From a virus (Duplodnaviria > Heunggongvirae > Uroviricota > Caudoviricetes): DNA of 64,000 bases. Below, piece after piece: positions 20,612 to 48,972 of this stretch. The position numbers and the translations under genes are program-made. Position 1 is the stretch's first letter. Each line of letters opens with the position of its first letter. Location: IMG/VR virus record IMGVR_UViG_3300031999_000001, positions 136,058 through 200,057 of that record. One strand, written 5' to 3'. The notes beneath the pieces were generated by a model that was given only the letters and a program-made list of their open reading frames with translations, was not told the DNA's origin and ran no database searches.

Positions 20612-20623
20612 TTTCTTTTTATA

Positions 20624-21310
20624 TTAAAAATTATTCACCAAACCTTGATTATAATCAACATATCCACCACCAACATCACTATATCCTGCTTTTGGTTTCA
20701 CTAATGTTGGTAAAAAAACATATGCTTTATATATATTATGACTTTGTAATAATGGCTGTAATATATCTGCTGGCTCTTTCCATATTTTTAATCTTTCTAA
20801 AAAATCAACAAAAATATTACTATTATAACCCAAAGCATATGCACATTGTGTCCATTTGGTTTTAATTAATTCATAATCAAAAGTATTGTAATTTTGTTTT
20901 GTTATTTTAATTGTTTTGTCTCCCGTTATCATTTCAAAACTACCCCAATCAAATTGGTTATTTCCACCCAAATACAATAAATTCCAATTATCGGGTAAAT
21001 ATTCAATTTTTTTCCAAAATCTTTCATTTATATTATCATTTAAATGAACATCATCCTCAAAAATCAATATACTTTTATATTTTTTTAATATTGCATCTTC
21101 GAAAATTTTAATATTTGTTAATAAATTACCATATGCACCAGCATGTCGATTTAAACCGGGTTGAAAAATATCTTTTCCGTTAATTGCTTCAAATCTTTCA
21201 ACCGTTAAAAAATGTTTTAGAAATTCTTTGCTCATTTCTTCCCATCTATCAGTTCTGTGTGTTAGATTCAAACAATAAATATGATCAAAAAAATTATTAA
21301 GTGTTTTCAT
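20624..21310 (-). CDS. GT25 (LPS-biosynthesis type) glycosyltransferase
   Basis: YCLNL..RTDRW, ERFEAING, ILIFEDD, LLYLGG. Confidence 0.85.
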   Translation of the reverse strand: MKTLNNFFDHIYCLNLTHRTDRWEEMSKEFLKHFLTVERFEAINGKDIFQPGLNRHAGAYGNLLTNIKIFEDAILKKYKSILIFEDDVHLNDNINERFWKKIEYLPDNWNLLYLGGNNQFDWGSFEMITGDKTIKITKQNYNTFDYELIKTKWTQCAYALGYNSNIFVDFLERLKIWKEPADILQPLLQSHNIYKAYVFLPTLVKPKAGYSDVGGGYVDYNQGLVNNF

Positions 21311-21322
21311 ATTTATATATAG

Positions 21323-21961
21323 CTACAAATTATGTTTTTTTCTAATTGCCATTATTGCATCTATTTCACTGTTTGTATTAGAAGTGATGCCTTCGTCTAT
21401 ATAATATGCAAAAAACTCATTATTTTGCACCGCAACTCCCTTATCACCATTTTTTAGCATAGTTAGCCAAAGGTCATAATCTTGAAGCCGTTTTAAATTT
21501 TCATCAAATCTTGGAAATTTTTCTCTGCGAATTAATGACATTGTTGAAATATAATTTGTTACTTTTAGTCTTTCGACATTAAATGGTATTGTTGGTATTA
21601 TAAAATTTTGTTTCAGTGGATGATTAACACTATCAACAACAATTCCAATATACCCGCTATAAGCATATGCTGCATTTAAATTTTTATTTAATGCATCCAA
21701 TAATTTTTCAAGATAATTTTTTGGTAAAAGTATATCATTATCACAAAAAAATACAAATTGTTGTGTTGATCTATCAAAACCATTATTTCTTTTTTTTGGT
21801 GCACCACCTAAATCATCATTAATAATTATTTCAATTGGCTGATTTGCCTCAATTAAAGGAAATACATAATTTTCAAAAAAATCTTTTCTCAACTTATCTC
21901 TTGTTGTTGGAATTATTACAGATATTGGTAATCCATCATTATATTTTATAATATCAATCAT
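21323..21961 (-). CDS. GT2 glycosyltransferase
   Basis: ISVIIP, KRNNG, FCDND, FDENLKRLQDYDLWL. Confidence 0.85.
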   Translation of the reverse strand: MIDIIKYNDGLPISVIIPTTRDKLRKDFFENYVFPLIEANQPIEIIINDDLGGAPKKRNNGFDRSTQQFVFFCDNDILLPKNYLEKLLDALNKNLNAAYAYSGYIGIVVDSVNHPLKQNFIIPTIPFNVERLKVTNYISTMSLIRREKFPRFDENLKRLQDYDLWLTMLKNGDKGVAVQNNEFFAYYIDEGITSNTNSEIDAIMAIRKKHNL

Positions 21962-22502
21962 TTTTCCACATTTTATTTCTAATTATTCTTGAAATGCTTA
22001 TTTCAGACACACCATATTTTCTCGCAAGAAATTGATAACCATCTTTTTTCAATATGTTGTTAAATTTAAACATACGAATTTCTTGTACTTGAATATTATT
22101 TAATTTAGCATTTATATTATTTTCACCACACATATTTAGACCATTTAAATGCCCCTCGACTTTTCTGGCAAGATTATAAATTTTATTGCTGAAATATTTA
22201 AAATAATAATCCAAATATTGTTGTTCAACATCATGTAATTGATTTTTATCAAAAATTTGAACAATTATTGAAAACATAAAATTCTGCGAACCATATTTAT
22301 TCCAAGCATGCTGTAAATAAATATTATAATGCTTATTATTATTTAATAAATGTATATGATGACTCCAACGATTTTTATAATCATAAGCACTGCCAATATA
22401 AAACTTACCATCTACCAAATTTAATATTTGATATATTGAACGTGGACTTGCTTCAAAATAATCAGGAAAATCATTTTTTATTCTAATTGCATTAGATTTC
22501 AT
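21954..22502 (-). mobile_element. Free-standing GIY-YIG homing endonuclease with C-terminal HTH
   Basis: SIYQI.N...FYIGSA...RW..H, EQ..LD, YN; C-term GENNINAKL...LARKYGVS..SISRI. Confidence 0.85.
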
Positions 22503-23197
22503 TCTTCATACGTAATTGGCAATTCATCTTTATATTTTTCAACAAATTGTTGTCTGTTTTTTTCCCATTCTTCATTTGTTGCACCCACAGATTCATGTAG
22601 TATTCTTATATCTGTTATAACACCAATATTACAACCCTCAAGGTAATTATTAAAAACCATCGGAATTTCATAAAAATGAAACCCTTTAAATTCTTCATCA
22701 AACTTATGCTCAATATTATTACAATCAACAGCCATAAATAATCCATCAATTAATATTACTGGTTTAATATATCCTTTTCTTGGTGGTGCATATTCACTTA
22801 CCCATGTTGAAATGCCATTGGTGTGCTCTACGACTCCATACATTTTAGTTCTGTCAGTCCACCAGCAACCATTATCGGCAAGATATGTTGTACCAGCTAC
22901 GCCAATTATTGAAAAATTCGAATAATTGAATTTATTAAGCAATATTTTACCCCAATTAGATGTTTTTATGGTTATGTCTGGATGAGAAAACACCATAATT
23001 ACATTATCTCCGTTATGTTCAGCAATTGCTCTATTATAAACTTCAGAAAGTGAATATTGGTTATAATTAACATAACACACAACATCATAATTTACGCCAA
23101 TTGTTTTATGAATATGATTAATAAATTCATTATTTTTTTCATCACCTAAATGTGAAGAAAATACAACAACTATTTTATTTTTTAAATTTTTTTTCAT
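22499..23197 (-). CDS. GT2-like glycosyltransferase (Glyco_tranf_2_5-like)
   Basis: LSEVYN, FSHPD, IIGVAG, IDGLFMA, FDEEFKGFHFY, ILHES.G. Confidence 0.8.
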   Translation of the reverse strand: MKKNLKNKIVVVFSSHLGDEKNNEFINHIHKTIGVNYDVVCYVNYNQYSLSEVYNRAIAEHNGDNVIMVFSHPDITIKTSNWGKILLNKFNYSNFSIIGVAGTTYLADNGCWWTDRTKMYGVVEHTNGISTWVSEYAPPRKGYIKPVILIDGLFMAVDCNNIEHKFDEEFKGFHFYEIPMVFNNYLEGCNIGVITDIRILHESVGATNEEWEKNRQQFVEKYKDELPITYEE

Positions 23198-36278: not shown

Positions 36279-36659
36279 ATGTGCCCCCGTCCAACCAGAA
36301 AAAAACTAAAATTTGATGAAGATAGTGTAAATAAATTACTTCAGGAAATTTATGATGAATCATGTAATGTTAAAGCAAAAATCATTCGCCTATTTACAAA
36401 ATGGGAATTAAAAGTAAAAGAAGGCGGTGAAATTGCTGCAATTGGTGATCAGATTGTTAAACTTATTGCTGCAGAAGCAAAAAATCAAGATCAAAAAATT
36501 ATGCTTCTTAAATATTTAAAGGAAGTTGTATTTGAAAAGAAAACAAATCCTGATGATACCCCAGAAGAAAGCGGTAATGTAACAACCGAAAGAAGAAATC
36601 AATTATTACATATGGTTCAAGAAGAAATTGATAAAAAAGAAAGGAATAAAAAAGAATAA
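36279..36659 (+). CDS. Hypothetical helical protein
   Basis: 126 aa ORF. Confidence 0.6.
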   Translation: MCPRPTRKKLKFDEDSVNKLLQEIYDESCNVKAKIIRLFTKWELKVKEGGEIAAIGDQIVKLIAAEAKNQDQKIMLLKYLKEVVFEKKTNPDDTPEESGNVTTERRNQLLHMVQEEIDKKERNKKE

Positions 36660-37960
36660 TGAGTTTAAGTGATGATAAAAAAAATATATTTACTACTATT
36701 GGTGCATATACTTCTTTAAAACAAGAAAGGAATTTGCCCGATACGACCAATTTATTTTCATCAATTAATAATAAAAAAGATGTTGTACCCTTTTTACTTG
36801 ATATTCTTAAAACTGTTGTTGGTACTGATGCCTTAAAACAACTTACTGGTCAATTATTTACTGATTTTATTGATAATGTTGAACCAAAAATAAAAGCAGC
36901 ATTAAACAAACAAATGATTCAATATAACGCAGGTGATGAACTTCCAACATGCTTTATAACAGGAATTTTAGTACCAGTAAAAGATATTGATATATTTGGT
37001 AAATTAAAAACAAATCCAAATTCGGCAGAAGGTAGTTTATTATATGGTTCAACAATTAATTTTGATAAGATTGCTTATCAGGCAATTTTAAATGCTGGAA
37101 CAGATACTTCATATTATAATTTATATATTAATTATAATGAAGCAACAGATAGTTTCATTTTTAAACCAAAACTTGATATTGTACCAAATCCAACAATTGG
37201 AGAATGGCTTGGAAATTTCATTAACGATACTGTTATTATTAATAAAAAAGAATTTTTAAGCAACGTAATGAATGCTATTTATGGTAGTATTACAACAAAT
37301 CAAAATAAAACTGTTGAACAAATATATAATGAATTACAAATAAGCAAATTAATTGAACAATTAATTGATGATAATGATAGTTTTGAAATAACACAAAATG
37401 AATTTGATGCATTACTACAACAAGCACAAGCATTGATTAATGGTGTTATTTACTATGATATGGGGTGTGGTGTTATTGGAGCTACGTTACCATTAAGTGG
37501 TATGACTAAATTAATTTCAGAAATATCTGGTTCAACAGATTCTTTTGTTGTTGGAAATGCTATTGAAGCAACAATTAATGAAAGTACTGCTGATGTGCAA
37601 GAAACTGCAGCAGAAAATAAACAAACAATAAAAGACGGATTTTTTCAGAGACTAATAAAAATAATTCAACAAATGTTGGCACAACTAATGACAACATCAC
37701 CACAAATTCGAGCACTTCTTGCAATAATAAGTGCTTTTGAAAATAATGGCATTGTTCAAATTGGAAATCCAAAAGATGATCTGAAAAAATTTAAAATATT
37801 TTTAAAATGTATAATAAAAGAAGCAACAAAAATGATAAATGAATTTATTTTTAATCTTGTGATTACATTTTTGGTTGCATTGCTTGCACCAATAATAAAA
37901 AAAATAATCAGAGAAAAAATTAATCAATACACAGATATTATTAAGAGTTTAATTATTTAA
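36659..37960 (+). CDS. Hypothetical (probable baseplate/virion) protein
   Basis: 433 aa, in operon with the gp5-like gene. Confidence 0.6.
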   Translation: MSLSDDKKNIFTTIGAYTSLKQERNLPDTTNLFSSINNKKDVVPFLLDILKTVVGTDALKQLTGQLFTDFIDNVEPKIKAALNKQMIQYNAGDELPTCFITGILVPVKDIDIFGKLKTNPNSAEGSLLYGSTINFDKIAYQAILNAGTDTSYYNLYINYNEATDSFIFKPKLDIVPNPTIGEWLGNFINDTVIINKKEFLSNVMNAIYGSITTNQNKTVEQIYNELQISKLIEQLIDDNDSFEITQNEFDALLQQAQALINGVIYYDMGCGVIGATLPLSGMTKLISEISGSTDSFVVGNAIEATINESTADVQETAAENKQTIKDGFFQRLIKIIQQMLAQLMTTSPQIRALLAIISAFENNGIVQIGNPKDDLKKFKIFLKCIIKEATKMINEFIFNLVITFLVALLAPIIKKIIREKINQYTDIIKSLII

Positions 37961-37964
37961 AATC

Positions 37965-38162
37965 ATGATAGTAGATCAAAAATTAAATAAACAATTTGTG
38001 GGTATTTATCTTATTGATGGGGATATTGATGGTACACAACTTGCAACAACAATTAAACCAAATTGGTTCAGAATATTGATAACCAAATGGTTTTTGGGTT
38101 GGAAATGGATAAGTATAAAAAAATTAAAAATTGAACAAGAAACACAAAAATTAAAAAAATAA
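37965..38162 (+). CDS. Small hypothetical protein
   Basis: 65 aa; KPNWFR..LGWKW. Confidence 0.55.
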   Translation: MIVDQKLNKQFVGIYLIDGDIDGTQLATTIKPNWFRILITKWFLGWKWISIKKLKIEQETQKLKK

Positions 38163-38163
38163 A

Positions 38164-38571
38164 ATGGCTATTGATTTTAATAATATTGATGCTATTGTTG
38201 CTGGATTTAATAAAATATTAAAACTCTCTACAATTGGTGGTCCACCACCAGTTCCAGTACCACTCATATTAGTTGGTGTAATGAAACGACCCGGATTATC
38301 ACCAATAAAGATTGCTTCACGTATTATTGCCAGAAAAAGTGAAGCAGGATTACCCGTTGGTACATTACCATCAGGTGGTGTTTCCCCTGATGAAATTATG
38401 GAAAGAATTAGAATTGAAGAAATTGTAAAAGCACTTCAACAAGATGCTGTAATTACAGTTGCAATTCCACCCGGAATTACAATAACTGCAGCAGGTATTT
38501 CACCAACAGGACCTGTTTCGGTGTTTGGTTCAACAATATATTATGCTAAAGGATATGGAGTTATACAATAA
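38164..38571 (+). CDS. Hypothetical baseplate/spike-associated protein
   Basis: 135 aa, Pro/Gly-rich; GP V-type beta C-terminus. Confidence 0.55.
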   Translation: MAIDFNNIDAIVAGFNKILKLSTIGGPPPVPVPLILVGVMKRPGLSPIKIASRIIARKSEAGLPVGTLPSGGVSPDEIMERIRIEEIVKALQQDAVITVAIPPGITITAAGISPTGPVSVFGSTIYYAKGYGVIQ

Positions 38572-38777
38572 TGGAAGATTTATCAAAATATACACCAACA
38601 GAATTGTTAAAATTAATTAATGATGTTAAAATAAAACATGAGATATTAAGACAAGAAATTATTAATCATACTCTTGAAGTCGATGAACTTGAAAGAATAA
38701 TTAATGAAAAATTAGAAATTTTAACCGAATTCGAAAAAAATTATGTTGTATTAATTGAAGAAATGAATAAGAAATAA
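38571..38777 (+). CDS. Small coiled-coil protein
   Basis: 68 aa, translationally coupled on both sides. Confidence 0.55.
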   Translation: MEDLSKYTPTELLKLINDVKIKHEILRQEIINHTLEVDELERIINEKLEILTEFEKNYVVLIEEMNKK

Positions 38778-39667
38778 TGTCATTTGATAAACCCATATTA
38801 CATAAAAGTAATCCATATAAACCTGTTGGACAAACAGATATTGTAACCAGAACAATATATTATGGTGAAGTAACTTCTATTGAAGACCCAACTGATGGTG
38901 GAAGAATAAAAACAAGAATTGCTGGATTAGATAATAGAACAGCAAATATTGACTTACCTTGGTGTTATCCATTAATGCCAAAATTTTTTCATGTTTATCC
39001 ACAAGTTGGTGAAATGGTTAGAATTTTTATTGAAGATATTAAATATCCAGAAAGAAGCAGATTTTGGCTTGGTAGTATTATATCACAACCACATAAAATC
39101 GGATTTGATTCAACATATACCGCATTATCAACAACAAATATGACACTCATAGTACCAGAACCTGCACCAACAACATTTCCCGATGCAGATGGTATATATC
39201 CCTTAAAAACAGATGTGGCAATTATTGGTAAGGTAAATACTGATATTATTTTACGTATAAATGAAGTGCATATTAGAGCTGGTAAACATGAAAATGATAA
39301 TGTTTTAAAATTAAATGTTAAAAATCCTGCAGAAATAAGTCTTATTTATGAACAAAAAAAAGAAAGTGATACATATTATACTAATACTATTATAACAAGT
39401 GATAAAATTGCTTTAATTTCACATTCGGGAATCCCACAATTTAAAGCAGTAAGATTAGAATCAAAAGACAGGGAAAGAATATTTAAAGAAGGTCATCCAG
39501 TTGCAAGGGGAGATGTTTTGGTTGAAGCATTAAATATTATTCGTAATGCATTAATTAATCATATTCATGGATATTTAAATCTTCCTGCAGATAAAAATGC
39601 AATTATTAATAATTTAGAAAAAATTAATTTTGAGTCAATTTTACAAAAAAACATTGTAACAAATTAA
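38777..39667 (+). CDS. Baseplate central spike (gp5/VgrG-like N-terminal OB fold)
   Basis: GEV.SIEDP.DGGRIK.RI..LD, LPWCYP, P.VGE.V; C-terminal NHIHGY metal-binding tip. Confidence 0.8.
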   Translation: MSFDKPILHKSNPYKPVGQTDIVTRTIYYGEVTSIEDPTDGGRIKTRIAGLDNRTANIDLPWCYPLMPKFFHVYPQVGEMVRIFIEDIKYPERSRFWLGSIISQPHKIGFDSTYTALSTTNMTLIVPEPAPTTFPDADGIYPLKTDVAIIGKVNTDIILRINEVHIRAGKHENDNVLKLNVKNPAEISLIYEQKKESDTYYTNTIITSDKIALISHSGIPQFKAVRLESKDRERIFKEGHPVARGDVLVEALNIIRNALINHIHGYLNLPADKNAIINNLEKINFESILQKNIVTN

Positions 39668-39683
39668 TATTTATATATCTTTG
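39654..39683 (+). promoter_or_regulatory. Bacteroidota-type promoter
   Basis: TTG-19nt-TATCTTTG upstream of ATG 39690. Confidence 0.55.
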
Positions 39684-39689
39684 TTATTA

Positions 39690-40481
39690 ATGGATTCAAA
39701 ATTATCAATACCCAGCGAATTATTTACAACATTTAATGATATTACGTTTTATGATGAACCACATAAATATTTTCTTAATAATAAAGAACTGATTTCAGTA
39801 ACAACTTTAATACATAAATATCAAGAAGAATTTCAAGAAGATTATTGGTCAAACTATAAAAGTGAGCAATTTCATATTAGTCAGAAAGAGATTTTAAGGG
39901 CATGGAATTTCATTAACAAGAAAGGGATTATAAAAGGGTCAGCTATTCACGATTATGCCCAGAATCTCTTTGAAAATAAGAAATTTGAGTATCCGAGTGA
40001 CATAATAGTTAAAGAATTTGGTTTTGACCCTGTAATTAATGAATATAATATTACAAAAAAACATGTTGATAAGTTTTATAATGATGTTCACGGTAAATTA
40101 ATACCAATTCGAACAGAAATGATTGTTTATGATAAAGAATCATTAATTGGTGGAATGCTTGATATATTATTTTATAACATAAAAGCAAAGGAATTTCAGA
40201 TTTGGGATAATAAAACCAACAAAGATTTTACATTTGAAATGAAAAGCAGACATTTACTTAATGAATTATATGTGTTAGAAGATTGTGATTTGGAATTATA
40301 TTCATTACAACTTGGTTTATATAAATATATTATTGAAAAAAATATTTCAATAAAACTTGGTAAATCATATATTATTTGGTTTTCACATAATAATTCAACA
40401 TATCAAATTATCGAAGCAAAAAATAGATCATATTATGTTGATATTATTGTAAAAAACAGAATTAATGAATTACAAACATAA
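39690..40481 (+). CDS. PD-(D/E)XK exonuclease-like protein
   Basis: H.Y...SVTT, G..IH, E..V, GMLD, WDNKT, YSLQL..Y. Confidence 0.8.
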   Translation: MDSKLSIPSELFTTFNDITFYDEPHKYFLNNKELISVTTLIHKYQEEFQEDYWSNYKSEQFHISQKEILRAWNFINKKGIIKGSAIHDYAQNLFENKKFEYPSDIIVKEFGFDPVINEYNITKKHVDKFYNDVHGKLIPIRTEMIVYDKESLIGGMLDILFYNIKAKEFQIWDNKTNKDFTFEMKSRHLLNELYVLEDCDLELYSLQLGLYKYIIEKNISIKLGKSYIIWFSHNNSTYQIIEAKNRSYYVDIIVKNRINELQT

Positions 40482-40527
40482 TATATTTGTCCAAAACAAT
40501 TTATTTTGACTCCTTTTTTTAATTTGA

Positions 40528-41019
40528 TTACAGGTTCAAAATACATCTCCACGGTTGAATTTCTAAAACTATGTTTGTTAATTCATCATTCGTATAATCA
40601 TTGTCTTGAAAATCAATTGATGTAATCATACATTGTTCCAAAAACCATTTTTCAACTTCAATGCCAACCGGGTCTAATGCTTTTAATAAAATGTTTTTAG
40701 CATATCCTGCTTTATAACCCATACGACCAGTAAGTGATTCAGCATGTAAACGAACCCATTCCATAAGTTGTTGTGATGTTGATGGACCTATCGGGTCAAG
40801 AAATGTAATTTGCATTGTATCCCAAACATATCTTCCAGCAACATAATTTTGTTCGTTCATAAACATAATCGGAACTGAATTTATTTTTAATGATGGTCTT
40901 TTAAATTTTTGAACTTTCCAAACTTCAATGCCTAATTCATCAGCAAATTCAGCAAAGAATCTATTAACTCTTTTTGGTTCATATTCGAACGGAATCCCAC
41001 GAATCATTTCCCCTGCCAT
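40528..41019 (-). CDS. Tail tube protein (gp19-like)
   Basis: EPKR.NRF, YVAGR..W, F.DPIGPS, EW, G.EVEKW.L; directly downstream of sheath. Confidence 0.85.
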   Translation of the reverse strand: MAGEMIRGIPFEYEPKRVNRFFAEFADELGIEVWKVQKFKRPSLKINSVPIMFMNEQNYVAGRYVWDTMQITFLDPIGPSTSQQLMEWVRLHAESLTGRMGYKAGYAKNILLKALDPVGIEVEKWFLEQCMITSIDFQDNDYTNDELTNIVLEIQPWRCILNL

Positions 41020-41080
41020 AATATTTATTATTAAATAATGTTATTCTTTGTAATATATTATCTTTGTAATATATTTTTAT

Positions 41081-41088
41081 ATAAATAC
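41081..41088 (-). promoter_or_regulatory. Putative late promoter GTATTTAT
   Basis: Upstream of tail tube gene. Confidence 0.6.
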
Positions 41089-41167
41089 TGTGTATTATAA
41101 AAAATATTAATAAAAAGAAACTAATTGATTATTTTACCATAAATAATAAATCTGGATATAAAACAAA

Positions 41168-41202
41168 AAAAAGCCACTAAAAATAAATTTAATGGCTTTT
41201 TT
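41168..41202 (-). terminator. Intrinsic terminator after sheath gene
   Basis: aaaaagcca-N-tggcttttt inverted repeat. Confidence 0.55.
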
Positions 41203-41213
41203 AAAAATTTTAA

Positions 41214-43940
41214 TTATGCACCAACATCGGCAAATGATGCACCAGTGGGTGTAATTGTAAATGTAATACCAATAAATTCAAGAGCACGTGTTGGTTTTAA
41301 GAATAATTCACCATACAATTCGTTTCTATCCATTGATTCTGTACTATTATTACTATCGTCCATTTTTATTCTGAACTCATATAAACCTCTTTCTCTTTTA
41401 ATACTATCAAGTATTGGAGTTGCTTTTTGTAAGAATTGGTCAATAGTTGTTTGATCGTTCTGGTCAAATACAAGTCTGATTGCAATATTTGCAATAAGTA
41501 CTTTAATCTGAAGTAATAATCTTCGAACATTGATTCTGTCAAGAGCACTTTCTTTAACCTGAAGTGTTTTTTGTCCGAATATTGCTGTTCCCGCATCTGC
41601 AAAATCAGCCATTGGGTTAATTCTTCCAGCATATAACACATCACGAGCATCTTGTGATAATTTATATTTTGATTTTCTTGCATCAGTTACACCACGTTGT
41701 AAACCAGCAGGTGCAAACCAAGGAAATTTTGTATTATCAGTAAATGCCATTGCTTTTACAACTTCACCAGTTGGTGGAAGATAAACATTTACATTATTCT
41801 GTGTATCTCTTATTTGAATCCAAGGAAAATATGTGCAAGAATAGCTGCTATCAATATCTGCTGTGTCAAGTAAATCAACAACATCCTCTGCATTAATAAC
41901 ATCAGTTTTTGCTTCACCAACAACCTGTGGCATTCCGATATCTGGAGAATCAATAATATATAATGTATCGGTTCTTTCTGTTTCAATCATTTCAATAGTA
42001 TCTTGAATTAAAATATTTTGGTCGCTCCAATTAATACCCGGAGTTGCAAAAAGATTAATTGTTATTTCTTCAGGATTTGCAAATGTATTAATTGCAGTTT
42101 CCCATGCTTGGAAATCATTTAATGGTGTAACATTAGGGGCAACACCGTCATAAATTCCGCCTTGACGATATGAATCACCATATGAACGTACAATTCTATG
42201 AACATCCCATCCATCAAAACCACCTGCAGGAACTAATGTGAACTTTCTTGAATTTAATTCATAATATGAATTTGTTGGGTCAGCAATATCACTAACTGTT
42301 TGGAATCGACTCTCACCAACTTCAAATTGAAATCCATTATATGTTCCAGTTGCACCAGAATCCATATGAAATCCTTTTGTATTAACAAAACCACCATACC
42401 CAATAAAATTAAAGAAGTTTTGATTAACGCCACTTCCAAGTAAGGTACTGTCAGCACTATTATATCCCTTTTCAGAAATACCCAAATATACTTTTCTAAT
42501 TTTTTCTGTTGATGTATAACTTGTTTTATAGAAAATTTTTGGTGCAACACCAGTAAATCCACTATACTGATTAAATAAATATCCTTCAAAACCTGCAGGA
42601 AATACATCTGGTGCAAGTTCGGGCGCAAGTTCAATCATTATATATTTGCTTTGAAGATCATATTCACCATTAGTTGTGCCAATACGTTGTGCAATATAAC
42701 CAGTTGTGCCTTTTATCATATTACATCTTGAGAAAGTTTCTAATACTTTTACATTGTTATCAGTATCATTAAAATCACGAACCACAACATCAAATTCTAA
42801 TGATTCTGGATTAATATTAGCAATACTGATTTTAATTTCTTGATTTGCAGCATCACCATCAGAAATACTGATAAATTTAAACAATTTATCTACAGTACTA
42901 CCTTTTATTTGTGATACAACCCAAGGTGTTTCGGGTGTTCTAAATGCAACACCACCTGCTGCTGGTCTATAATCGGTGAATACATTGGTATTACAATTAA
43001 GCAATGTTGAATTAATACCATAACCAATACCATCAGCATCTAATTTTTTAATTAAATCTGGATAAACTGCCTGAACCCATATTTTATTGCTCTTATCTTT
43101 TGGTTCAAAACCAATTACATTTGGTAAGAAATTACTTGAATTTGGATTTAATGATGCGGTATATGTTTCTACTGATGTACCAGATAATGCAACCAATTTA
43201 AATTGTCCAAATAAATCACCACTACCAATAACCGTTGTATTTGCTGAAACAGGTAATGTGAGATTAGTTGTCCAGAATTCTGTATCAGGTGCTGCATTTA
43301 CAATATCAGATACAGTTGCTCTGCTTCTAACAACAGCAAGCACCATATTTTCATATTCAGTAAGTGAAGTACCCGTTAATACAGTTACAAGATCAGTAAC
43401 AGTACCGCCAGTAAGAGTTATTGTTGTTGCAGTAAATTCATGTAAATAACCTTCAAAATCAGTAGTATTTATTTTAGTATATCCACTAAATGCACTACCA
43501 GTATCACCAGTAATATATAGTGCAACACCTAAATACATACCATTAGTAAATGACACACCAGTATATATACTTGATGTTGATCTACCAGTTGTTGCTGGGT
43601 CAACACCAGCACTTAATGTAAGTGCCCATGCTGTTCCTGCTTCATATCCCGATAAACCCAATACTCTGGTCACCCATAATTGATTTGTTTCGTCTAAATA
43701 TGCATTTCCAACATAAGGTAATTGATATTGAAGTAAACCACTTGAAAATCTTTTTGCACTTTGTGCACCAAATCTTTGTGCAAATTGTGTTTTATCCTGA
43801 ACAAAAACAGGTTCAAATGCAGGACCTTTTAATGTTTCACCAACCAATCCTAAAGTTGTTATACCCACATTACGTGTTACAAAAGTTAAATCACGTTCTT
43901 TAAATTTCGCCCCCGGAGAGGTAAATACAAATTCTGCCAT
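41214..43940 (-). CDS. Contractile tail sheath protein (gp18-like)
   Basis: FTSPG...E.D, GET.KGPAFEP, WFAPAG..RG, LYAGRINP, GQKT, LDRINVRRLL, KPTRALEFI. Confidence 0.95.
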   Translation of the reverse strand: MAEFVFTSPGAKFKERDLTFVTRNVGITTLGLVGETLKGPAFEPVFVQDKTQFAQRFGAQSAKRFSSGLLQYQLPYVGNAYLDETNQLWVTRVLGLSGYEAGTAWALTLSAGVDPATTGRSTSSIYTGVSFTNGMYLGVALYITGDTGSAFSGYTKINTTDFEGYLHEFTATTITLTGGTVTDLVTVLTGTSLTEYENMVLAVVRSRATVSDIVNAAPDTEFWTTNLTLPVSANTTVIGSGDLFGQFKLVALSGTSVETYTASLNPNSSNFLPNVIGFEPKDKSNKIWVQAVYPDLIKKLDADGIGYGINSTLLNCNTNVFTDYRPAAGGVAFRTPETPWVVSQIKGSTVDKLFKFISISDGDAANQEIKISIANINPESLEFDVVVRDFNDTDNNVKVLETFSRCNMIKGTTGYIAQRIGTTNGEYDLQSKYIMIELAPELAPDVFPAGFEGYLFNQYSGFTGVAPKIFYKTSYTSTEKIRKVYLGISEKGYNSADSTLLGSGVNQNFFNFIGYGGFVNTKGFHMDSGATGTYNGFQFEVGESRFQTVSDIADPTNSYYELNSRKFTLVPAGGFDGWDVHRIVRSYGDSYRQGGIYDGVAPNVTPLNDFQAWETAINTFANPEEITINLFATPGINWSDQNILIQDTIEMIETERTDTLYIIDSPDIGMPQVVGEAKTDVINAEDVVDLLDTADIDSSYSCTYFPWIQIRDTQNNVNVYLPPTGEVVKAMAFTDNTKFPWFAPAGLQRGVTDARKSKYKLSQDARDVLYAGRINPMADFADAGTAIFGQKTLQVKESALDRINVRRLLLQIKVLIANIAIRLVFDQNDQTTIDQFLQKATPILDSIKRERGLYEFRIKMDDSNNSTESMDRNELYGELFLKPTRALEFIGITFTITPTGASFADVGA

Positions 43941-44004
43941 TTTAATTAATTATTAATGTTTTTATTTATTATTTTCTGCTATTAGCTTTCGCCACATTTT
44001 TTTA

Positions 44005-44012
44005 ATAAATAC
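44005..44012 (-). promoter_or_regulatory. Putative late promoter GTATTTAT
   Basis: Upstream of the sheath gene; divergent partner at 44221. Confidence 0.6.
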
Positions 44013-44220
44013 TAAAAAATAATGCAAAAGGTATTTCTTTTTAATTATTATCATACTGTATTTCTTGTTCATAAATTCAAATTTTTATCTTTTTTATTTT
44101 TTTTATCTCAGATTTTTAAGATTTTTTAATTTTTTACTTTAAATTCTCTCAAATTTTTATAAAAAAATATTTTACTTTTTTTGAAAATATTTTTTTATTG
44201 ATAAGGAATTCTTAATATTA

Positions 44221-44228
44221 GTATTTAT
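44221..44228 (+). promoter_or_regulatory. Putative late promoter GTATTTAT
   Basis: 17 nt before ATG 44245. Confidence 0.6.
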
Positions 44229-44244
44229 GAAAAAGATATTTTTT

Positions 44245-46371
44245 ATGAACAAATCACAACGAATTCGATTAGATGTTAATGCATTAAATGAAGATAAACA
44301 TATAAAAGTTCAACTTGAACAAAATGTTAATACTCTTGAATTTTTATCAATGAGTATTGATATAAAAGATGTGTATCAGGATTTTAATGCAGATTATGGT
44401 GTTTTGGTTGGAAGAGTTATTGCTAATGGTGGTATTGGTATTCCAAATGCCAAAATAAGCATATTTATACCACTTACAGACGAAGATACTGAAAACAGTG
44501 AAATATATAGCATTTATCCATATAAAACGCTAAGAGACAAGAATAATGAGGGAAAAAGATATAATTTATTACCACGAGTCGGAAAAAAAGACTTAATGAC
44601 AGGAATTATTTCACCAAAACAACCATTTGGTTCATTTCCAATTAAAGAAGAAATTGTAACAAATGAACCATTTTTAAATGTCTATAAAAAATATTATAAA
44701 TATACGGCATTAACCAATAATGCAGGTGATTATATGATTTTTGGTGTGCCAATTGGAACACAAACAGTTCATTTAAGTGTTGATATTACCGATATTGGTA
44801 AATATAGTATGACACCAGCAGCAATGGTTACAAATCTTGGATATTCTCCAAATTTATTTACCGATAATAACACAAAAATAAAGCCAAGTAATGATTTGAA
44901 TGATTTACCACATATTGAAACACAAGAAATTAGTGTTGATATTATGCCATTCTGGGGAGATACCGAAAATTTCACAATTGGTATAACACGTCAGGATTTT
45001 AGAATTAGGTCTGTTCTCACCAACACATTTGTGCTTTTTGGAAGCGTGTTTACTGATGGTAACAATACCATGTGGAGTGCTGAGTATACAACTGAAGAGA
45101 GAATCAGCGAGTATTTCAGAGCCAGCCATCCATCACAGACATTGCATGGGGTCTACAATAAACGGATTGGAATAGTTACAGAAAAAATTTATTATTATCC
45201 AGCAAATATTAGTGATACTGAAATCGATACGGGTCAGGCTAAAAATGATGGTAGTGATATGAAACTTCTGGATAAAAGCGAGTATTCTGTATATAAACGT
45301 GATGGTGATTTCGTGGTTATTGTTAGTTGTAATAGAAATAAAATCATTACCAATGAATTGGGAAACCCCGTACCTGTGGATAATAATAGTGTTGAGGGAA
45401 TATTTACAAAATTCAGGGGATTTATAACATTAGAACTCAGTAAAGAAATTGTTTCATTAGATTTTAGCACAAATGTAGGTCAGAATGTTGATATTGTACC
45501 ACTAAGATATAAACTAAAATTTCCACAATACGCCAATCAAAATCAGGGATTTGAGCCACCTGATGAATCAAGTGGTGTTGACTCCACCAGAACCAATAAT
45601 TGGAGAAAACAACATAAGGTTTTTGAAGGTGGAAAATATTATAGTGTTGCTAAGTTTCACGGAATTACTTTCAATAATTGGGGAGGTAATGATAACCAGC
45701 AAACTGATAGTAATGGATTTTTTATAAAGGACACACATAATAATCTCACTTGTGATGATCGTAATAATAATGTTGGTATTTTAGTAACAGAAACTGATGG
45801 GATTTATCCCAATGGCAATTATCAGTTTCCAAGTAATGGTGTAACAACAGGTTCGTTAAATGCGTTTGGTGCTGCATGGTTAAATCTAACAGTTCATCTT
45901 CCACAAGTGGGAAAGTCAATAGATGGTTGGGAAAAAATGGATTATGTAAGAACGAATGACAACTTCAGTCATCAAAAAAGAGAAAATGATAACAGATATA
46001 ATTATTTAAACGGTTATTATGTGGGGGATAATCAACAAATAATTGCTGCACAGCAATTTAATACAAAATGGTTTGCTCGTTCTGATGTACATTGGACTGA
46101 TATTATTGAAGTTCCAGTCACAGATATAATTGCAATGAAAGCTCTTGATACAAAAGGATTCACAAACTCAAATATACCAACAGTAACAGGTATTGAATAT
46201 CGTAATGGTGACTATAAACCTTCAAATTGGACAGTAACTGTAGCAGCACCATTAAATGGTCAGAAGAAGAATGGTATTCCTACTGCTAATAGTGATGCAA
46301 CTAAATATTTTTACAAGGGATGGGGTCCGTCCGATTGTATTAAATATTTGGAAGAACTCGGAATAATATAA
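44245..46371 (+). CDS. Probable virion structural protein (N-terminal carboxypeptidase-regulatory/Ig-like domain)
   Basis: YGVLVGRVIAN.G.GIPNAKISIF, TNNAGDYMIFGVP.G; late promoter; likely start MNKSQR. Confidence 0.6.
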   Translation: MNKSQRIRLDVNALNEDKHIKVQLEQNVNTLEFLSMSIDIKDVYQDFNADYGVLVGRVIANGGIGIPNAKISIFIPLTDEDTENSEIYSIYPYKTLRDKNNEGKRYNLLPRVGKKDLMTGIISPKQPFGSFPIKEEIVTNEPFLNVYKKYYKYTALTNNAGDYMIFGVPIGTQTVHLSVDITDIGKYSMTPAAMVTNLGYSPNLFTDNNTKIKPSNDLNDLPHIETQEISVDIMPFWGDTENFTIGITRQDFRIRSVLTNTFVLFGSVFTDGNNTMWSAEYTTEERISEYFRASHPSQTLHGVYNKRIGIVTEKIYYYPANISDTEIDTGQAKNDGSDMKLLDKSEYSVYKRDGDFVVIVSCNRNKIITNELGNPVPVDNNSVEGIFTKFRGFITLELSKEIVSLDFSTNVGQNVDIVPLRYKLKFPQYANQNQGFEPPDESSGVDSTRTNNWRKQHKVFEGGKYYSVAKFHGITFNNWGGNDNQQTDSNGFFIKDTHNNLTCDDRNNNVGILVTETDGIYPNGNYQFPSNGVTTGSLNAFGAAWLNLTVHLPQVGKSIDGWEKMDYVRTNDNFSHQKRENDNRYNYLNGYYVGDNQQIIAAQQFNTKWFARSDVHWTDIIEVPVTDIIAMKALDTKGFTNSNIPTVTGIEYRNGDYKPSNWTVTVAAPLNGQKKNGIPTANSDATKYFYKGWGPSDCIKYLEELGII

Positions 46372-46376
46372 AAAAA

Positions 46377-46399
46377 AACCCTCTCGATTTGAGAGGGTT
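46377..46399. terminator. Bidirectional intrinsic terminator
   Basis: aaccctctc-gattt-gagagggtt between convergent genes, with A/T-rich flanks. Confidence 0.75.
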
Positions 46400-46403
46400 A
46401 GTT

Positions 46404-46877
46404 TTATTTTTGTAGAGTATAAACCCCATTATCAGGCAGGTAAACACCCCCCATGTTTGCATCAGTTAATTTCAATACGAGTATTTTATTTGCCCTGTCA
46501 AAACTCTCCACATCAAACTTACACACAAAAATTCCACCATTCTTCAATACAAGTTTCCCAGCATTCCTATCATAATCCACCGTATTACCATATGTTTCTA
46601 ATGATGTACACTCACTATCCAATGTCCATTCAGAACCAATATTGAGTGATATGAGCATTAAATCACCAGCCAAGACATCACCATTGGTGGAAACTGAAAG
46701 TTCGGAACACTCATAATACGTTTTATCGTAATCATATTGTGTGGAAATCCATATACCCTGTAGTTCATCAAGAGTAATTGCTCCATCAGTAACAATAGGG
46801 TCATCATCTTTTTCACAATTGGTGCTTATAAGAACCATTGCAAACATTAGTGCGAATAAATAAATTACTTTTTTCAT
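46404..46877 (-). CDS. Bacteroidota-type surface lipoprotein (lipocalin-like)
   Basis: MKK + hydrophobic core + STNC lipobox, then EKDDD; L.G.W lipocalin-like motif. Confidence 0.75.
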   Translation of the reverse strand: MKKVIYLFALMFAMVLISTNCEKDDDPIVTDGAITLDELQGIWISTQYDYDKTYYECSELSVSTNGDVLAGDLMLISLNIGSEWTLDSECTSLETYGNTVDYDRNAGKLVLKNGGIFVCKFDVESFDRANKILVLKLTDANMGGVYLPDNGVYTLQK

Positions 46878-46958
46878 TTTTTCTATTTTTTAGTTAAACA
46901 TATCTTATTATACGAATTAAATTTAAAAATGTTACAAAAAACATAAAATATTTTTAAG

Positions 46959-46966
46959 GTATTTAT
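46959..46966 (+). promoter_or_regulatory. Putative late promoter GTATTTAT
   Basis: 16 nt before GTG 46982. Confidence 0.6.
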
Positions 46967-46981
46967 AGTAAACAACAAAAA

Positions 46982-48145
46982 GTGGAAATATTACTCAATA
47001 GTCTTAAAAATATTAATTCTGTTAATACTGATATGTTTGAAAAAGTTGAATTACTTAATGAACCAGCATTAATTAATGAGTATGATATTCGTAATGTGCT
47101 TAGTGTCACCGAAATATTTGATGCAGAAAGAGAAGCAAATGAAATTTATAGAATTTATGGTAAAATTGAATATATATCATTATTAAATGGATTAAAATCA
47201 CAATATATTCAATTTGAAGACTTTTTTTCACCACAAACAACAGGAAATTATAAAAACATATTAAATTCTTTTGATTTTTATTTAGTTAAGGCAGGAACAG
47301 GATATACACAAATTATTAGTGGTGGTAGTACCATATTATGGACAAGATATTTTGAAGTAATTGCAACTCCAAGTGAATTTGATATCTATCCTATTGGATT
47401 TTCAAACAATGTTTATGGAGAACAAGCATATGGATTTAATTTTAATATTGATATTAATGTTGCAAATTTTCTTGATAATTTTAGATTTCCAGCAACTGAA
47501 TTATTTTTATATGCACAATATAAACCAACAACAATTCCAAATCCGATTGAAATACTTTCTGGCACAATATGGTCACCAACAGGAAATGATACCCAATTTC
47601 CATTTGAACCAATATATTTAAATATAGGTGATTATGTTAAATCATTTTTTGATGTAAAAATTGGTGATTTAATTGAATATTCTAAATCAAATTTTTTACA
47701 AATACAACACACACCACAAACATTTCGCATACAAACACCATATAATGAAGGTCGTTTGATATGGAAATATAATCCATTTATTCCATTTAGACTTAGATAT
47801 TTCGCAAATGAATTAAATAAAGAAAATATTAGTGGTACATCATACGAACAAACATCTTCAATACCATATTATGCAACAGAATATCCCCTTGGTACTGGAA
47901 ACTATGTTTGGAGAAACATTTTATCACAGGGATATATTGACCCATTAACTGGTATTGGTGTTGATTATCCGTTTATTAATAAAAGAAGATATTTATTTTC
48001 AAATATAGTTTTTGATGTAATTCCAGATTTAAATGATAATCAAACACTTGAAGCATTTAAAGAAATATGGTTTAGTCGATATTCAACAAAAATAAATGTT
48101 ACGCCAATGGGTGATATTAATAACATAGGAAAACCATGTCAATAA
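46982..48145 (+). CDS. Probable virion structural protein
   Basis: Late promoter; FD.ER..YR.YGKI, YVWRNIL..G.ID...GVDYPF. Confidence 0.6.
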   Translation: MEILLNSLKNINSVNTDMFEKVELLNEPALINEYDIRNVLSVTEIFDAEREANEIYRIYGKIEYISLLNGLKSQYIQFEDFFSPQTTGNYKNILNSFDFYLVKAGTGYTQIISGGSTILWTRYFEVIATPSEFDIYPIGFSNNVYGEQAYGFNFNIDINVANFLDNFRFPATELFLYAQYKPTTIPNPIEILSGTIWSPTGNDTQFPFEPIYLNIGDYVKSFFDVKIGDLIEYSKSNFLQIQHTPQTFRIQTPYNEGRLIWKYNPFIPFRLRYFANELNKENISGTSYEQTSSIPYYATEYPLGTGNYVWRNILSQGYIDPLTGIGVDYPFINKRRYLFSNIVFDVIPDLNDNQTLEAFKEIWFSRYSTKINVTPMGDINNIGKPCQ

Positions 48146-48972
48146 TTAAAGAAAGGGTAAGATTTAATAGCAATTTAATTGGAATTAGTGGTAATACAAA
48201 TATTATTACTGGTAATACAATAAATTTCAAATTTTCTTTGGGATTAAAAGATAATTTTATTGGATATCAGCAAGAAATTGATAGTTTAACATCATTTACT
48301 ACAATTGATTTGGTAAATCCTGTTGTTGATGAAGAAAAAAGAAAATTTAAATTAAATCCATTACCTGATTCAACAATAACACTTCAATTTAAATTTTATA
48401 GCGGAACATCATCTCCCCCATATCAAACTTCATTTAAAAATGCGGGTTTTACTGATAATGAAATTAATCAAAATAATTTTAATTTACTTAATAGTTTTTT
48501 TATTTTGGATTTTTATAATACATATGATATTAATACACAAATAAAAATATTTACAACATATTTAACGAAAAAAGGAGCAACACCCATATATTCAATTAAT
48601 GCAAATATTAATAATCAATTATATTATTGGTATGTTCCAATATCATATATGACAGGTACAACTGCTATTGGTTATGTTAAATTTAGTTTTTTTAATGCAA
48701 AAACTGGAAAATTAACATTATTTTATAATGAAAACAATATTACACCAGAAACCGCAGAAAAATTATTTTTCAAAGTTGAATTAAATCAGGTTAATAAAAC
48801 TTGGAAGTTTTTAACTTCACAATATCCAATAATAAATGCAAAAGAATTTATTAATAGTACTCAATACATTAATAGAATTAATAATACTTATGATAAATTT
48901 GATAATTTAAGTCAAACATATCCAACGGGAAATACATTTAATTATTTAGAAGGTAATTATTTTACAACATAA
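48136..48972 (+). CDS. Probable virion structural protein
   Basis: NSFFILDFY, YVKFSFFNAKTG; coupled to the previous gene. Confidence 0.6.
   Translation: MSIIKERVRFNSNLIGISGNTNIITGNTINFKFSLGLKDNFIGYQQEIDSLTSFTTIDLVNPVVDEEKRKFKLNPLPDSTITLQFKFYSGTSSPPYQTSFKNAGFTDNEINQNNFNLLNSFFILDFYNTYDINTQIKIFTTYLTKKGATPIYSINANINNQLYYWYVPISYMTGTTAIGYVKFSFFNAKTGKLTLFYNENNITPETAEKLFFKVELNQVNKTWKFLTSQYPIINAKEFINSTQYINRINNTYDKFDNLSQTYPTGNTFNYLEGNYFTT

Follow-up and report, generated by a model that had tools for sequence, protein, structure and literature searches.

A short sequence pattern, a hydrophobic residue followed by Ser or Thr, Gly, any residue and Thr, is specifically enriched, some 5 to 8 times above chance, in the tail sheath, the tail fibers and several unrelated particle proteins of a clade of uncultured ~330-kb phages (jumbo phages), and the enrichment is clade-wide, spans several families and is restricted to particle proteins. 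We propose, with a probability of roughly 0.4, that hydrophobic-[Ser/Thr]-Gly-x-Thr is a surface-turn motif marking the sites at which soluble enzymes encoded by the phage O-glycosylate its virion proteins in the cytoplasm. If that is true, this candidate sequon may be the first known attachment signal for phage self-glycosylation.

The window, by which we mean the whole 64,000-nucleotide stretch of the contig that was analyzed, had been the subject of an earlier note, which described a recurrent [S/T]-G-x-[S/T] motif in "exposed tail proteins" and read it as the acceptor signal for a glycosyltransferase (GT) island of the phage. The proteins concerned are as follows.

36659..37960, plus strand: p433, with two copies (SGMT and SGST) and weak enrichment
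41214..43940, minus strand: tail sheath, 908 aa, a T4 gp18-type core with a large clade-specific insertion at residues ~100 to 600 (PHROG 23, E = 1.6e-64)
44227..46371, plus strand: p714, a negative example inside the range given by the earlier note, with no copies versus 0.99 expected
46982..48145, plus strand: p387, which overlaps the start of p278 and has three copies (TGYT, SGGS and SGTS)
48136..48972, plus strand: p278, a beta-sandwich protein of 278 aa, with five copies

The tetrapeptide counts in that note were all correct, each at the gene to which it had been assigned: 10 in the sheath, 7 of them at residues 118 to 253; 5, 3 and 2 at 48136-48972, 46982-48145 and 36659-37960; one TGLT each in the major capsid protein (MCP; 61079-62752) and a 1107-aa protein (24174-27497); and none in the Gly-rich 830-aa protein. 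Its guess that chance would give the sheath ~1 to 2 copies also holds, composition giving 2.1. In the comparison with shuffled sequences that it had proposed, the 20 copies in the four carrier proteins of the window stood against 3.3 to 4.4 expected, and 0 of 5,000 shuffles reached 20, whether these were global, within 40-aa blocks or within 20-aa blocks. Structural proteins were likewise enriched relative to the others, the proteome outside the carrier proteins showing the motif at 0.98 to 1.14 times expectation. The description of the carriers as exposed tail proteins fared less well; the sheath is indeed a tail protein, but nothing marks the products of 46982-48145, 48136-48972 or 36659-37960 as tail proteins.

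Most of the signal comes from parts of the contig beyond the window, at 59 to 66 kb, 95.7 to 121.2 kb and 133.6 to 135.1 kb. The motif had been picked post hoc by eye, and this upstream fiber block provides an out-of-sample replication: ~14 fiber-type proteins contain 145 [ST]GxT tetrapeptides versus 25.2 expected (Poisson P = 3e-60). The fibers are mosaic paralogues whose visible repeats carry the motif, and part of their signal resides in structural repeats, namely, an 18-aa F..Y[ST]GTT[AV]P.TY repeat and TGHTH motifs. After de-duplication, 145 flank-independent contexts remained versus 30.8 expected, and the flanks were nearly information-free. The fibers also show that the original definition, although it captured a real enrichment, was too broad; the enriched form has Thr, not Ser or Thr, at position 4 and tends to follow a hydrophobic residue, [ST]-G-x-S reaching only ~1.2- to 1.3-fold in the four main fiber blocks (2.7-fold in a small set of three proteins at 59 to 66 kb).

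Overall, the motif is enriched 3- to 8-fold in the fibers, the sheath insertions, p278 and p387, and it is carried by at least eight protein groups that have no BLAST relation to one another. Rearrangements of the motif with the same composition were found at ~1-fold (range, 0.65 to 1.7), and the control variants N/A/D-G-x-[ST] and [ST]-G-x-N/A were found at 0.4- to 1.6-fold. Codon usage within the motif is the same as outside it, which argues against a codon-level cause, and a spacing of 3 occurred in just 7 of ~200 intervals, showing that the motif is nonperiodic. Collagen-like (Gly-X-Y)n repeats, with Gly at every third residue for at least four triplets, account for merely 12 residues contig-wide. 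The signal is weaker in the window proteins, where the strict motif occurs 5 times in the sheath (1.3 expected), 4 times in p278 (0.28 expected; P = 2e-4), twice in p433 (0.23 expected) and once in p387 (0.2 expected). The capsid and tail tube are not enriched, and the most exposed protein of all, the MCP, has one copy versus 0.84 expected.

The assignment of the sheath is secure, in that a PDB profile of the T4/KP1 sheath matches residues 604 to 905 (gp18 chains; E = 2.5e-32) and Foldseek finds T4 gp18 with a probability of 1.00. Nine of its 10 [ST]G.[ST] copies, 5 of which are [ST]G.T, fall inside the insertion. The enrichment recurs in 50 to 55 orthologues; across 50 of them, [ST]G.T is found at 4.7-fold at residues 100 to 330 and 4.2-fold at residues 330 to 600, with 0 versus 5.8 expected at residues 1 to 100 and 0.37-fold in the core. 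As modeled, the sheath sites are thus confined to clade-specific outer insertion domains. In the AlphaFold model, 3 of the 10 sites are inside strands, the other 7 being at hairpin turns or where loops meet strands, and in the AF2 model of p278 (pLDDT, 71.5), all 5 sites are in coil, those at residues 18 and 25 with a pLDDT of <50. For these two models together, 12 of 15 sites appear to fall in a loop, a hairpin turn, the edge of a strand or the flexible N-terminal extension. The positions of many sites are conserved across the clade in the sheath, p278 and a LamG-like family. The sheath sites turn over among 60 alignment columns, and a divergent sheath clade (42% identity) has sites of its own (11 versus 2.6 expected).

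Pooled orthologues of p278 have [ST]G.T at 9.4-fold, with 0 to 7 copies each, and those of p387 have it at 8.6-fold, with 0 to 8 copies. Two of the p278 copies sit in an N-terminal extension built from motif copies, which is present in only 4 of 26 orthologues, and its carriers are not monophyletic. Together with the 60 sheath columns, the range of 0 to 8 copies in p387 and p278 orthologues indicates that, as far as alignments can tell, the motif is not required by the folds that bear it. The motif loads of p387 and p278 co-vary after phylogenetic contrasts (r = 0.47, P ~0.01); this adjacent pair alone survived, other cross-protein co-variation being mostly lost on phylogenetic correction. For p433, the window copy is enriched at a P of ~0.02 to 0.05, and its orthologues have [ST]G.T at 4.8-fold and [ST]G.S at 0.73-fold. 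In p714 orthologues, [ST]G.[ST] is found at 1.55-fold and its load does not co-vary with that of other proteins. PHROGs, Pfam, PDB profile and fold searches gave no fold or family match for p278 and no usable identity for p433, and PHROGs, Pfam and structure searches gave no family or structure match for p387.

All six clade genomes examined (five besides this contig) show the enrichment, with 4 to 13 proteins per genome at P < 1e-3. In contrast, the outgroup myoviruses T4, ValKK3, S-CAM7 and Mel-JY01 showed no motif signal once collagen-like repeats had been masked; three of the four have no protein at P < 1e-3, and the single one in ValKK3, a 170-aa protein with 2 copies, is spurious. Triplet arrays (G-A-T and G-S-S) in the fibers of S-CAM7 and Mel-JY01 match [ST]G.[ST] as well, and T4 gp36/gp37 have a mild 2- to 3-fold excess. 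Possession of GTs does not by itself predict the motif, since Mel-JY01 has two GT2 genes yet lacks the signal. GT genes were detected in 12 of 12 relatives tested at E <= 0.001, 11 of them above the Pfam cutoff; the relative G008 has only a subthreshold GT2 match but carries a sugar island at the same hotspot. Because every member of the clade has GT genes, the co-occurrence of motif and GTs is uninformative within it.

The putative modification genes are as follows.

4597..21961, minus strand: hypervariable sugar-synthesis and glycosyltransferase island (Pfam matches)
21954-22502: GIY-YIG endonuclease gene
22499..23197, minus strand: soluble PF13712 (Glyco_tranf_2_5) glycosyltransferase at the baseplate-proximal edge of the island (Pfam E = 1.5e-24)

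The island encodes GT2 proteins, GT25, DXD-type GTs, a PseB/CapD-like dehydratase, a UDP-GlcNAc 2-epimerase, a PIG-L deacetylase, a formyltransferase and many methyltransferases, the FkbM and TylF types included, among nucleotide-sugar enzymes. Its genes run in the same direction as the late structural genes among which it sits. Transmembrane-like segments were found in 0 of 25 island proteins versus 32 of 215 on the contig, making the island wholly soluble. The same hotspot holds ~9 kb in the relative G002 and ~6 kb of different content in G008. The PF13712 GT is constant by comparison: 9 of 9 complete relatives have it, as do 2 of 3 partial ones, at 49 to 72% identity and sometimes within a frame of 505 to 561 aa, and all nine complete relatives also carry the motif. 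It has no transmembrane-like segment; more than 120 metagenome homologues match it at >=59% identity, and none was found among 50,697 cultured-phage records, T4, ValKK3, S-CAM7 and Mel-JY01 included. We consider it a candidate initiating protein O-glycosyltransferase. Late in infection, this enzyme, encoded beside the baseplate genes, would place the first sugar on the motif Ser or Thr displayed on loops and beta-hairpin turns of the outer sheath insertions, the tail fibers and a small number of other particle proteins. Enzymes of the island, which differ between strains, would afterwards supply unusual nucleotide sugars, lengthen the glycan and methylate it.

That the motif is the acceptor signal for the island, as the earlier note had it, is only partly upheld. 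The specificity of the enrichment, its restriction to particle proteins and to this clade, the clade-constant soluble GTs, the position of the island beside late structural genes and the precedent of Ser-Gly sites in TibA all support the acceptor reading, and the many unrelated carriers suit a trans-acting reader better than one fold. The lack of enrichment in the MCP weakens it, as do the loss of most co-variation after phylogenetic correction, the part of the fiber signal that lies in structural repeats, and the cytoplasmic phage enzymes, in which the motif is not avoided (0.98-fold) as a promiscuous cytoplasmic transferase might impose. So, too, does the pattern itself, in which a hydrophobic residue, Ser/Thr, Gly, any residue and a beta-branched Thr follow one another as they would in a tight beta-turn that leads into a strand. 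It is quite possible, if short of an even chance, that the motif is purely structural, a beta-turn or strand-cap element of the clade's fiber, jelly-roll and beta-sandwich modules that was spread by module shuffling and retained for its part in folding or in the assembly of trimers, while the sugar island acts on something else or on other sites of virion proteins. The preference for Thr over Ser at position 4 fits beta-strand propensity, the sheath sites are largely at junctions and turns with three in strands, many sites keep their positions within the clade, the repeats of the mosaic fibers bear the motif, and the excess in T4 gp36/gp37 arises without protein glycosylation. However, the beta-rich structural proteins of T4, ValKK3, S-CAM7 and Mel-JY01 have no comparable enrichment, nor does the remaining proteome of this phage; at least eight unrelated families would need the same idiosyncratic turn, in 145 independent contexts with nearly information-free flanks; orthologues with no copies fold as the same proteins; and the N-terminal extension of p278, made of motif copies, is predicted to be disordered.

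The variety of carriers, the restriction to particle proteins and the clade specificity would apply equally to another trans-acting reader, such as a fiber or sheath assembly chaperone, a kinase, a methyltransferase or a hydroxylase, or to weak binding sites for host surface polysaccharide. The island is rich in methyltransferases, and functional methylation of a tail protein is reported in a mycobacteriophage (PMC13445384). We nevertheless think such a reader unlikely: no candidate was found, the FkbM- and TylF-type enzymes of the island are typical of sugar methylation, and Gly-flanked Ser/Thr hydroxyls are classic substrates of O-glycosylation and phosphorylation, no kinase being found in the regions scanned. 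The island and the motif might instead be unrelated neighbors, the former acting on DNA or host envelope glycans, in keeping with the DNA glucosylation and serotype conversion for which phage GTs are best known (PMC12619734). This we hold improbable, since the island has no membrane protein, flippase, polymerase or initiating phosphoglycosyltransferase, which makes lipid-linked glycans of the envelope an unlikely product, and shares the strand of the late structural genes around it. For DNA, the sole thymidylate-synthase-family gene in the relatives is an ordinary ThyA (325.9 bits versus a cutoff of 327) and no hydroxymethylase was found, so nothing points to DNA glycosylation by way of hydroxymethylated bases. 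An artifact of chance, composition or repeats might be suspected of a motif chosen post hoc by eye, and collagen-like repeats do give a spurious signal in other phages, but its probability is close to nil; it is refuted by the block shuffles, the rearranged-motif controls, de-duplication and the out-of-sample replication (P ~1e-60). Masking as collagen-like removed only 12 residues of the contig, and five further clade genomes replicate the signal.

As a candidate acceptor signal, the motif can be compared with several known systems. The Bacteroidota D-[ST]-[AILMVT] sequon is likewise an O-glycosylation signal of three to four residues, in the phylum proposed as the host, but that system is periplasmic and lipid linked, and its sequon is not enriched here (0.94-, 1.02-, 1.44- and 0.63-fold in the four fiber sets). 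Bacillus BclA is glycosylated on a Thr two residues after Gly in collagen-like Gly-X-Thr repeats; this spacing, shared with collagen-like phage fibers, is that of the present motif, which differs in being nonperiodic. The Megavirinae (Mimivirus group) encode nucleotide-sugar pathways and GTs of their own, in clusters that vary between lineages, and decorate their surface fibers; these too are large viruses with variable sugar/GT clusters, but they are giant viruses of eukaryotes, and we know of no acceptor motif defined for their fibrils.

In certain mycobacteriophages, phage-encoded GTs act within the cytoplasm of the host on the capsid and tail proteins of the phage itself (Freeman et al. 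2023, as summarized in PMC12619734). Those are siphoviruses with a few GT genes, and the glycans are reported on the C termini of capsid and tail-tube subunits, the same text describing no short internal sequon; here, the sheath and fibers are enriched, the capsid and tube are not, and the island has ~25 genes. The autotransporter heptosyltransferases of the BAHT family (AAH and TibC, whose substrates are AIDA-I and TibA) are soluble cytoplasmic enzymes that hyper-O-glycosylate many sites of Ser followed by Gly at turns between the short strands of a beta-rich surface adhesin, TibA being heptosylated at N-S-G-G and V-S-G-T in beta-helix turns (PMC4358343). The BAHTs are GT-B enzymes that form iron-containing dodecamers, use ADP-heptose and modify Ser only. 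In the phage, the candidate is a small PF13712 GT-A-like protein, and no heptosyltransferase (BAHT-like) family was found among 23 island proteins searched against Pfam, which matched GT2, GT25, DXD-type GTs and PF13712. The proposed targets are phage particle proteins, Thr would be required at +3, and the glycan is probably complex and strain variable. The resemblance is thus mechanistic only, and it lies in the BAHT acceptor being a structural turn and a recognition site together, as we propose for the motif.

The contig that ends in the window is 200,057 bp long and 61% complete (CheckV), with the window as its final 64 kb, and has a GC content of ~25-28%. It comes from a T4-like jumbo myovirus, and because related contigs of 299-365 kb were found, several of them with terminal repeats, we assign it to a widespread uncultured clade. 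The particle and candidate particle genes considered here, called by a simple greedy ORF rule, are listed with observed copies of [ST]-G-x-[ST] and the numbers expected from per-protein composition.

Particle and candidate particle genes of the window
41214-43940, minus strand: gp18-type sheath (PHROGs, PDB profile, Foldseek); 10 copies vs 2.1 expected
48136-48972, plus strand: candidate particle protein p278; 5 copies vs 0.43 expected
46982-48145, plus strand: candidate particle protein p387; 3 copies vs 0.38 expected
36659-37960, plus strand: candidate particle protein p433; 2 copies vs 0.38 expected
40528-41019: tail tube candidate, from position and size
61079-62752: gp23-type major capsid protein (PHROGs)

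The earlier note had listed tetrapeptides of this form in exposed tail proteins, and we found every one of them in place. The 20 copies compare with a combined 3.3-4.4 in shuffles of whole proteins or of 40- or 20-residue blocks, and none of 5000 shuffles reached 20. The note's impression that enzymes carry few copies was borne out, those in window enzymes being mostly Walker-A-like (e.g., TGKS, SGKS, and TGKT). The host-type sequon D-[ST]-[AILMVT], from which the note had set the motif apart, occurs at the expected frequency, like N-x-[ST]. The claimed absence from the tape measure agrees with the count in an 830-aa protein (27920-30412, minus strand; 10.7% Gly; 0 copies vs 1.3 expected), a protein whose identity as tape measure found no PHROGs match.

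Because the motif had first been picked by eye, proteins that had played no part in its choice offered the stronger test. Fibre-type genes clustered at 95.7-121.2 kb of the contig, not seen when the motif was proposed, contained 167 copies vs 43 expected, and the load was similar in more proteins at 59-66 kb and 133.6-135.1 kb; across the contig's other 192 proteins [ST]-G-x-T stood at 0.98x expectation, and the major capsid protein was not enriched. Several of the loaded upstream proteins were recognised by PHROGs and Pfam as tail fibres or virion structural proteins, and one of them has a Peptidase_S74 intramolecular chaperone. In cultured phages the fibre shafts that carry the motif had no homologue, matches being confined to the C-terminal S74 chaperone domain, and p278, p387, p433, and the other singletons drew no usable identity from PHROGs, Pfam, PDB sequence profiles, Foldseek, VIA-align, or the ESM Atlas (the best VIA-align match for p278, Z 5.2, was a generic beta-sandwich).

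Two motif-rich proteins, one on this contig and one in relatives, have features of their own. A 606-aa tail fibre (G000:C1:107299-109119, equivalent to L004:10300-12120, minus strand) contains 18-residue repeats of the form F..Y[ST]GTT[AV]P.TY, a Cys/Gly-rich block, a C-terminal Peptidase_S74 chaperone that matches PDB 6f45, and two T-G-H-T-H motifs, which show the His-x-His pattern known from T4 gp37-type fibres. A protein of 626-710 aa, encoded far from the fibre blocks in the relative G008 (G008:C1:40477-42357, equivalent to L089:477-2357, minus strand) and with orthologues in G002, G003, G006, and G009, is among the most enriched per genome (9-13 copies vs 0.6-1.2 expected); by eye its C terminus (IGGIQKLRIYDxAL) resembles LamG, and the protein had no Pfam or PHROGs match.

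A scan of all residue triplets across five spacing patterns defined the signal more closely. SG.T (83 vs 12) and TG.T (96 vs 18) stood out at z ~20, with no other triplet above z ~11; position 4 was Thr in 82% of instances and position -1 was L, I, Y, or V in 56%, the remaining flanks being nearly information-free. Fibre blocks from three genomes had [ST]-G-x-T (the strict motif) at 5.0-8.0x expectation, rising to ~8x with a preceding hydrophobic residue, whereas [ST]-G-x-S reached 1.2-1.3x in the four main blocks and 2.7x in the small three-protein set at 59-66 kb. Rearranged motifs of the same composition gave 0.45-1.8x, and N/A/D-G-x-[ST] and [ST]-G-x-N/A were at or under expectation.

The signal is not a generic property of sheaths and fibres: T4 gp18 (0 copies vs 1.3 expected), gp34 (1 vs 3.3), and gp12 (1 vs 2.0) lack it, T4 shows a mild excess in gp36/gp37 only, and Vibrio phage ValKK3 was without signal. 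When the whole genomes of ValKK3, cyanophage S-CAM7, and Microcystis phage Mel-JY01 (whose sheath is the closest among cultured phages) were scanned, the latter two initially gave a huge signal, which came from collagen-like G-X-Y arrays of spacing 3 and was gone after masking. These long (Gly-X-Y)n proteins (S-CAM7, stretches L136-L146, 12914-15874 and 169499-173626; Mel-JY01, stretches L126-L135, 635-3052 and 9444-9986) are rich in G-A-T or G-S-S triplets and must be masked in any survey of the motif. After masking, the ratios for each outgroup's twelve proteins richest in S/T/G were 0.87-1.44, no better than rearranged motifs, and the clade genomes still gave 3-4x. The strict motif marked 4-13 proteins at Poisson P<1e-3 in each of six clade genomes, with 5.6-8.3x enrichment within them; three of four outgroups had no such protein, and ValKK3 had one spurious case (2 copies in 170 aa).

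The motif-rich proteins fall into at least 8 groups without BLAST-detectable kinship, namely a mosaic fibre family of eleven members and seven singletons that include the sheath, p387, and p278. When contexts sharing at least 6 identities in sixteen flanking residues were collapsed, 145 independent contexts remained vs 30.8 expected. The unrelated groups and independent contexts together rule out a single repeat family or paralogy, and codon usage was the same inside and outside the motif, which excludes a DNA-level cause. We concluded that the enrichment is real, specific, and clade-restricted, and is not an artefact of repeats, paralogy, composition, or DNA sequence; we regard chance or artefact as exceedingly improbable, even for a pattern first noticed by eye.

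All 55 sheath orthologues carried 4-14 copies vs 2-3 expected, spread over 60 alignment columns and densest at residues ~100-260 of the window protein. Site 899 was the sole near-universal one; some others were well conserved (a T-G-[DQ]-T / S-G-F-T pair and an [ST]-G-[TS]-S ahead of YxEYENM), and a divergent subclade (~42% identity) had its own set. Pooled over 50 orthologues, and hence from non-independent counts, [ST]-G-x-T occurred 0 times vs 5.8 expected in residues 1-100, at 4.7x in residues 100-330, at 4.2x in residues 330-600, and at 0.37x in the gp18-like core; by homology with the architecture of T4 gp18, the insertion at residues ~100-600 would lie on the outer face of the sheath.

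Similarly pooled, p387 and p278 gave 8.6x and 9.4x, and because individual genomes ranged from 0 to 8 copies, neither fold needs the motif. Four of 26 p278 orthologues, which are non-monophyletic on the sheath-core tree, bear an N-terminal extension that consists nearly entirely of motif copies and is otherwise unrelated in sequence. One orthologue (L060:4418-5302, minus strand) has a Ser/Thr-rich and then Cys-rich tail (...SCCSCCCCC), absent in the other 25. Motif load co-varied across genomes (p387-p278, rho 0.60; sheath-p278, rho 0.51), with rearranged-motif controls not significant, but these correlations were largely lost under independent contrasts, where p387/p278 alone persisted (r 0.47, p ~0.01), and that pair is weak evidence because the two genes are adjacent.

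In the predicted structure of p278 (mean pLDDT 71.5, confident beta-sandwich core), none of the five sites fell in a regular secondary-structure element, and two were in the N-terminal extension at pLDDT <50. In the sheath model (mean pLDDT 67.5; residues 100-320 of the insertion ~85-90), 7 of 10 sites were at loop-to-strand junctions or hairpin turns and 3 within long strands. This modelled placement fits accessible turns and, equally, a structural turn motif.

Beside the baseplate genes lies a hotspot of sugar genes between conserved neighbours, ~18 kb here, ~9 kb in the relative G002, and ~6 kb in G008.

Sugar genes of the window (Pfam)
4597-23197: GT2, GT25, and DXD-type transferases
4597-23197: PseB/CapD-type dehydratase, UDP-GlcNAc 2-epimerase, PIG-L deacetylase, formyltransferase
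4597-23197: RmlD-like reductase fused to GT2; many methyltransferases
22499-23197, minus strand: PF13712 transferase, at the baseplate-proximal edge
21954-22502, minus strand: GIY-YIG endonuclease, at the island edge between two conserved glycosyltransferase genes (22499-23197 and 21323-21961)

None of 25 island proteins had transmembrane-like segments vs 32 of 215 on the contig, and the pathway is cytoplasmic, without lipid-carrier machinery. The GIY-YIG gene may be a homing element that adds to hotspot turnover.

What is new here is the conserved PF13712 transferase predicted at the island edge. It was found in 9 of 9 complete and 2 of 3 partial relatives (49-72% identity) and has more than 120 unnamed metagenome homologues, some with added PF13439 or PF00535 domains, and no match among 50,697 cultured-phage records. 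In G001, G003, G004, G007, and G011 it lies within a 505-561-aa frame and is not free-standing (~230 aa); the G001 frame is broken by one TAA stop. If one transferase initiates a glycan that others then elaborate variably, such a pairing of one conserved enzyme with a hypervariable neighbourhood would be expected. The earlier note had proposed asking whether motif density and glycosyltransferases co-occur, a comparison with no negative control inside the clade, because all 12 relatives examined had a GT2-family match (E<=0.001; 11 over the Pfam cut-off). G008 fails as a glycosyltransferase-free control: its GT2 match is weak, yet it has a different sugar island with a GT31-type transferase and a sugar C-methyltransferase/reductase fusion. 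Outside the clade the comparison through PF13712 fails, since cultured phages have no homologue.

The simplest explanation for the independent enrichment of this motif across many mutually unrelated particle proteins of a single clade is a shared reader, as also argued by the motif's dispensability for the folds, its avoidance of the buried sheath core, and its formation of motif-only extensions. As judged from their genes, the only clade-specific, conserved, soluble candidates for such a reader that we identified were glycosyltransferases. The earlier note's inference that the motif is the acceptor for O-glycosylation thus has the specific enrichment and the soluble transferases on its side, and the unenriched capsid protein and the lack of motif avoidance by cytoplasmic enzymes against it; we put its probability at roughly 0.4. 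Some other trans-acting reader would explain the same distribution and seems to us unlikely. A purely structural role is a serious rival, somewhat doubtful as the whole explanation: the pattern is a textbook turn-plus-strand signature, and part of the fibre signal lies within evident structural repeats. Considered separately, action of the island on DNA or envelope glycans instead of virion proteins is quite improbable; we found no hydroxymethylase pointing to glycosylated DNA (relatives have just one gene of the thymidylate-synthase family, an ordinary ThyA), which leaves other DNA routes.

With marginally less confidence than for the acceptor role itself, we propose that these phages run their own sequon-directed cytoplasmic O-glycosylation, in which case the motif would be the first acceptor defined for virion glycosylation in a bacteriophage. 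The PF13712 transferase would start a glycan at hydrophobic-[ST]-G-x-T turns of the sheath outer domains and fibres, and the hypervariable 6-18 kb island would elaborate strain-specific, heavily methylated glycans, coating the tail with a swappable glycan. Virion glycosylation would then be predictable from sequence across a globally distributed clade of ~330 kb phages, the hypervariable island beside the baseplate genes would be accounted for, and an [ST]-G-x-T-rich peptide with one small soluble enzyme would make a compact tag for cytoplasmic glyco-engineering. If the motif is structural only, the clade's particle proteins are nonetheless marked by a highly specific turn signature that has gone unreported and that can serve to annotate structural genes otherwise unidentifiable.

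To our knowledge, phage self-glycosylation has been demonstrated essentially only in mycobacteriophages, and we know of no acceptor rule for it; our literature searches turned up neither a phage sheath or fibre described as glycosylated nor any S/T-G-x-T acceptor. A direct precedent for the chemistry that the motif would offer, a Ser/Thr next to Gly in a turn, is TibA, which undergoes cytoplasmic heptosylation at N-S-G-G and V-S-G-T (PMC4358343). Because the TibA acceptor is itself a structural turn, the acceptor and structural readings are not exclusive.
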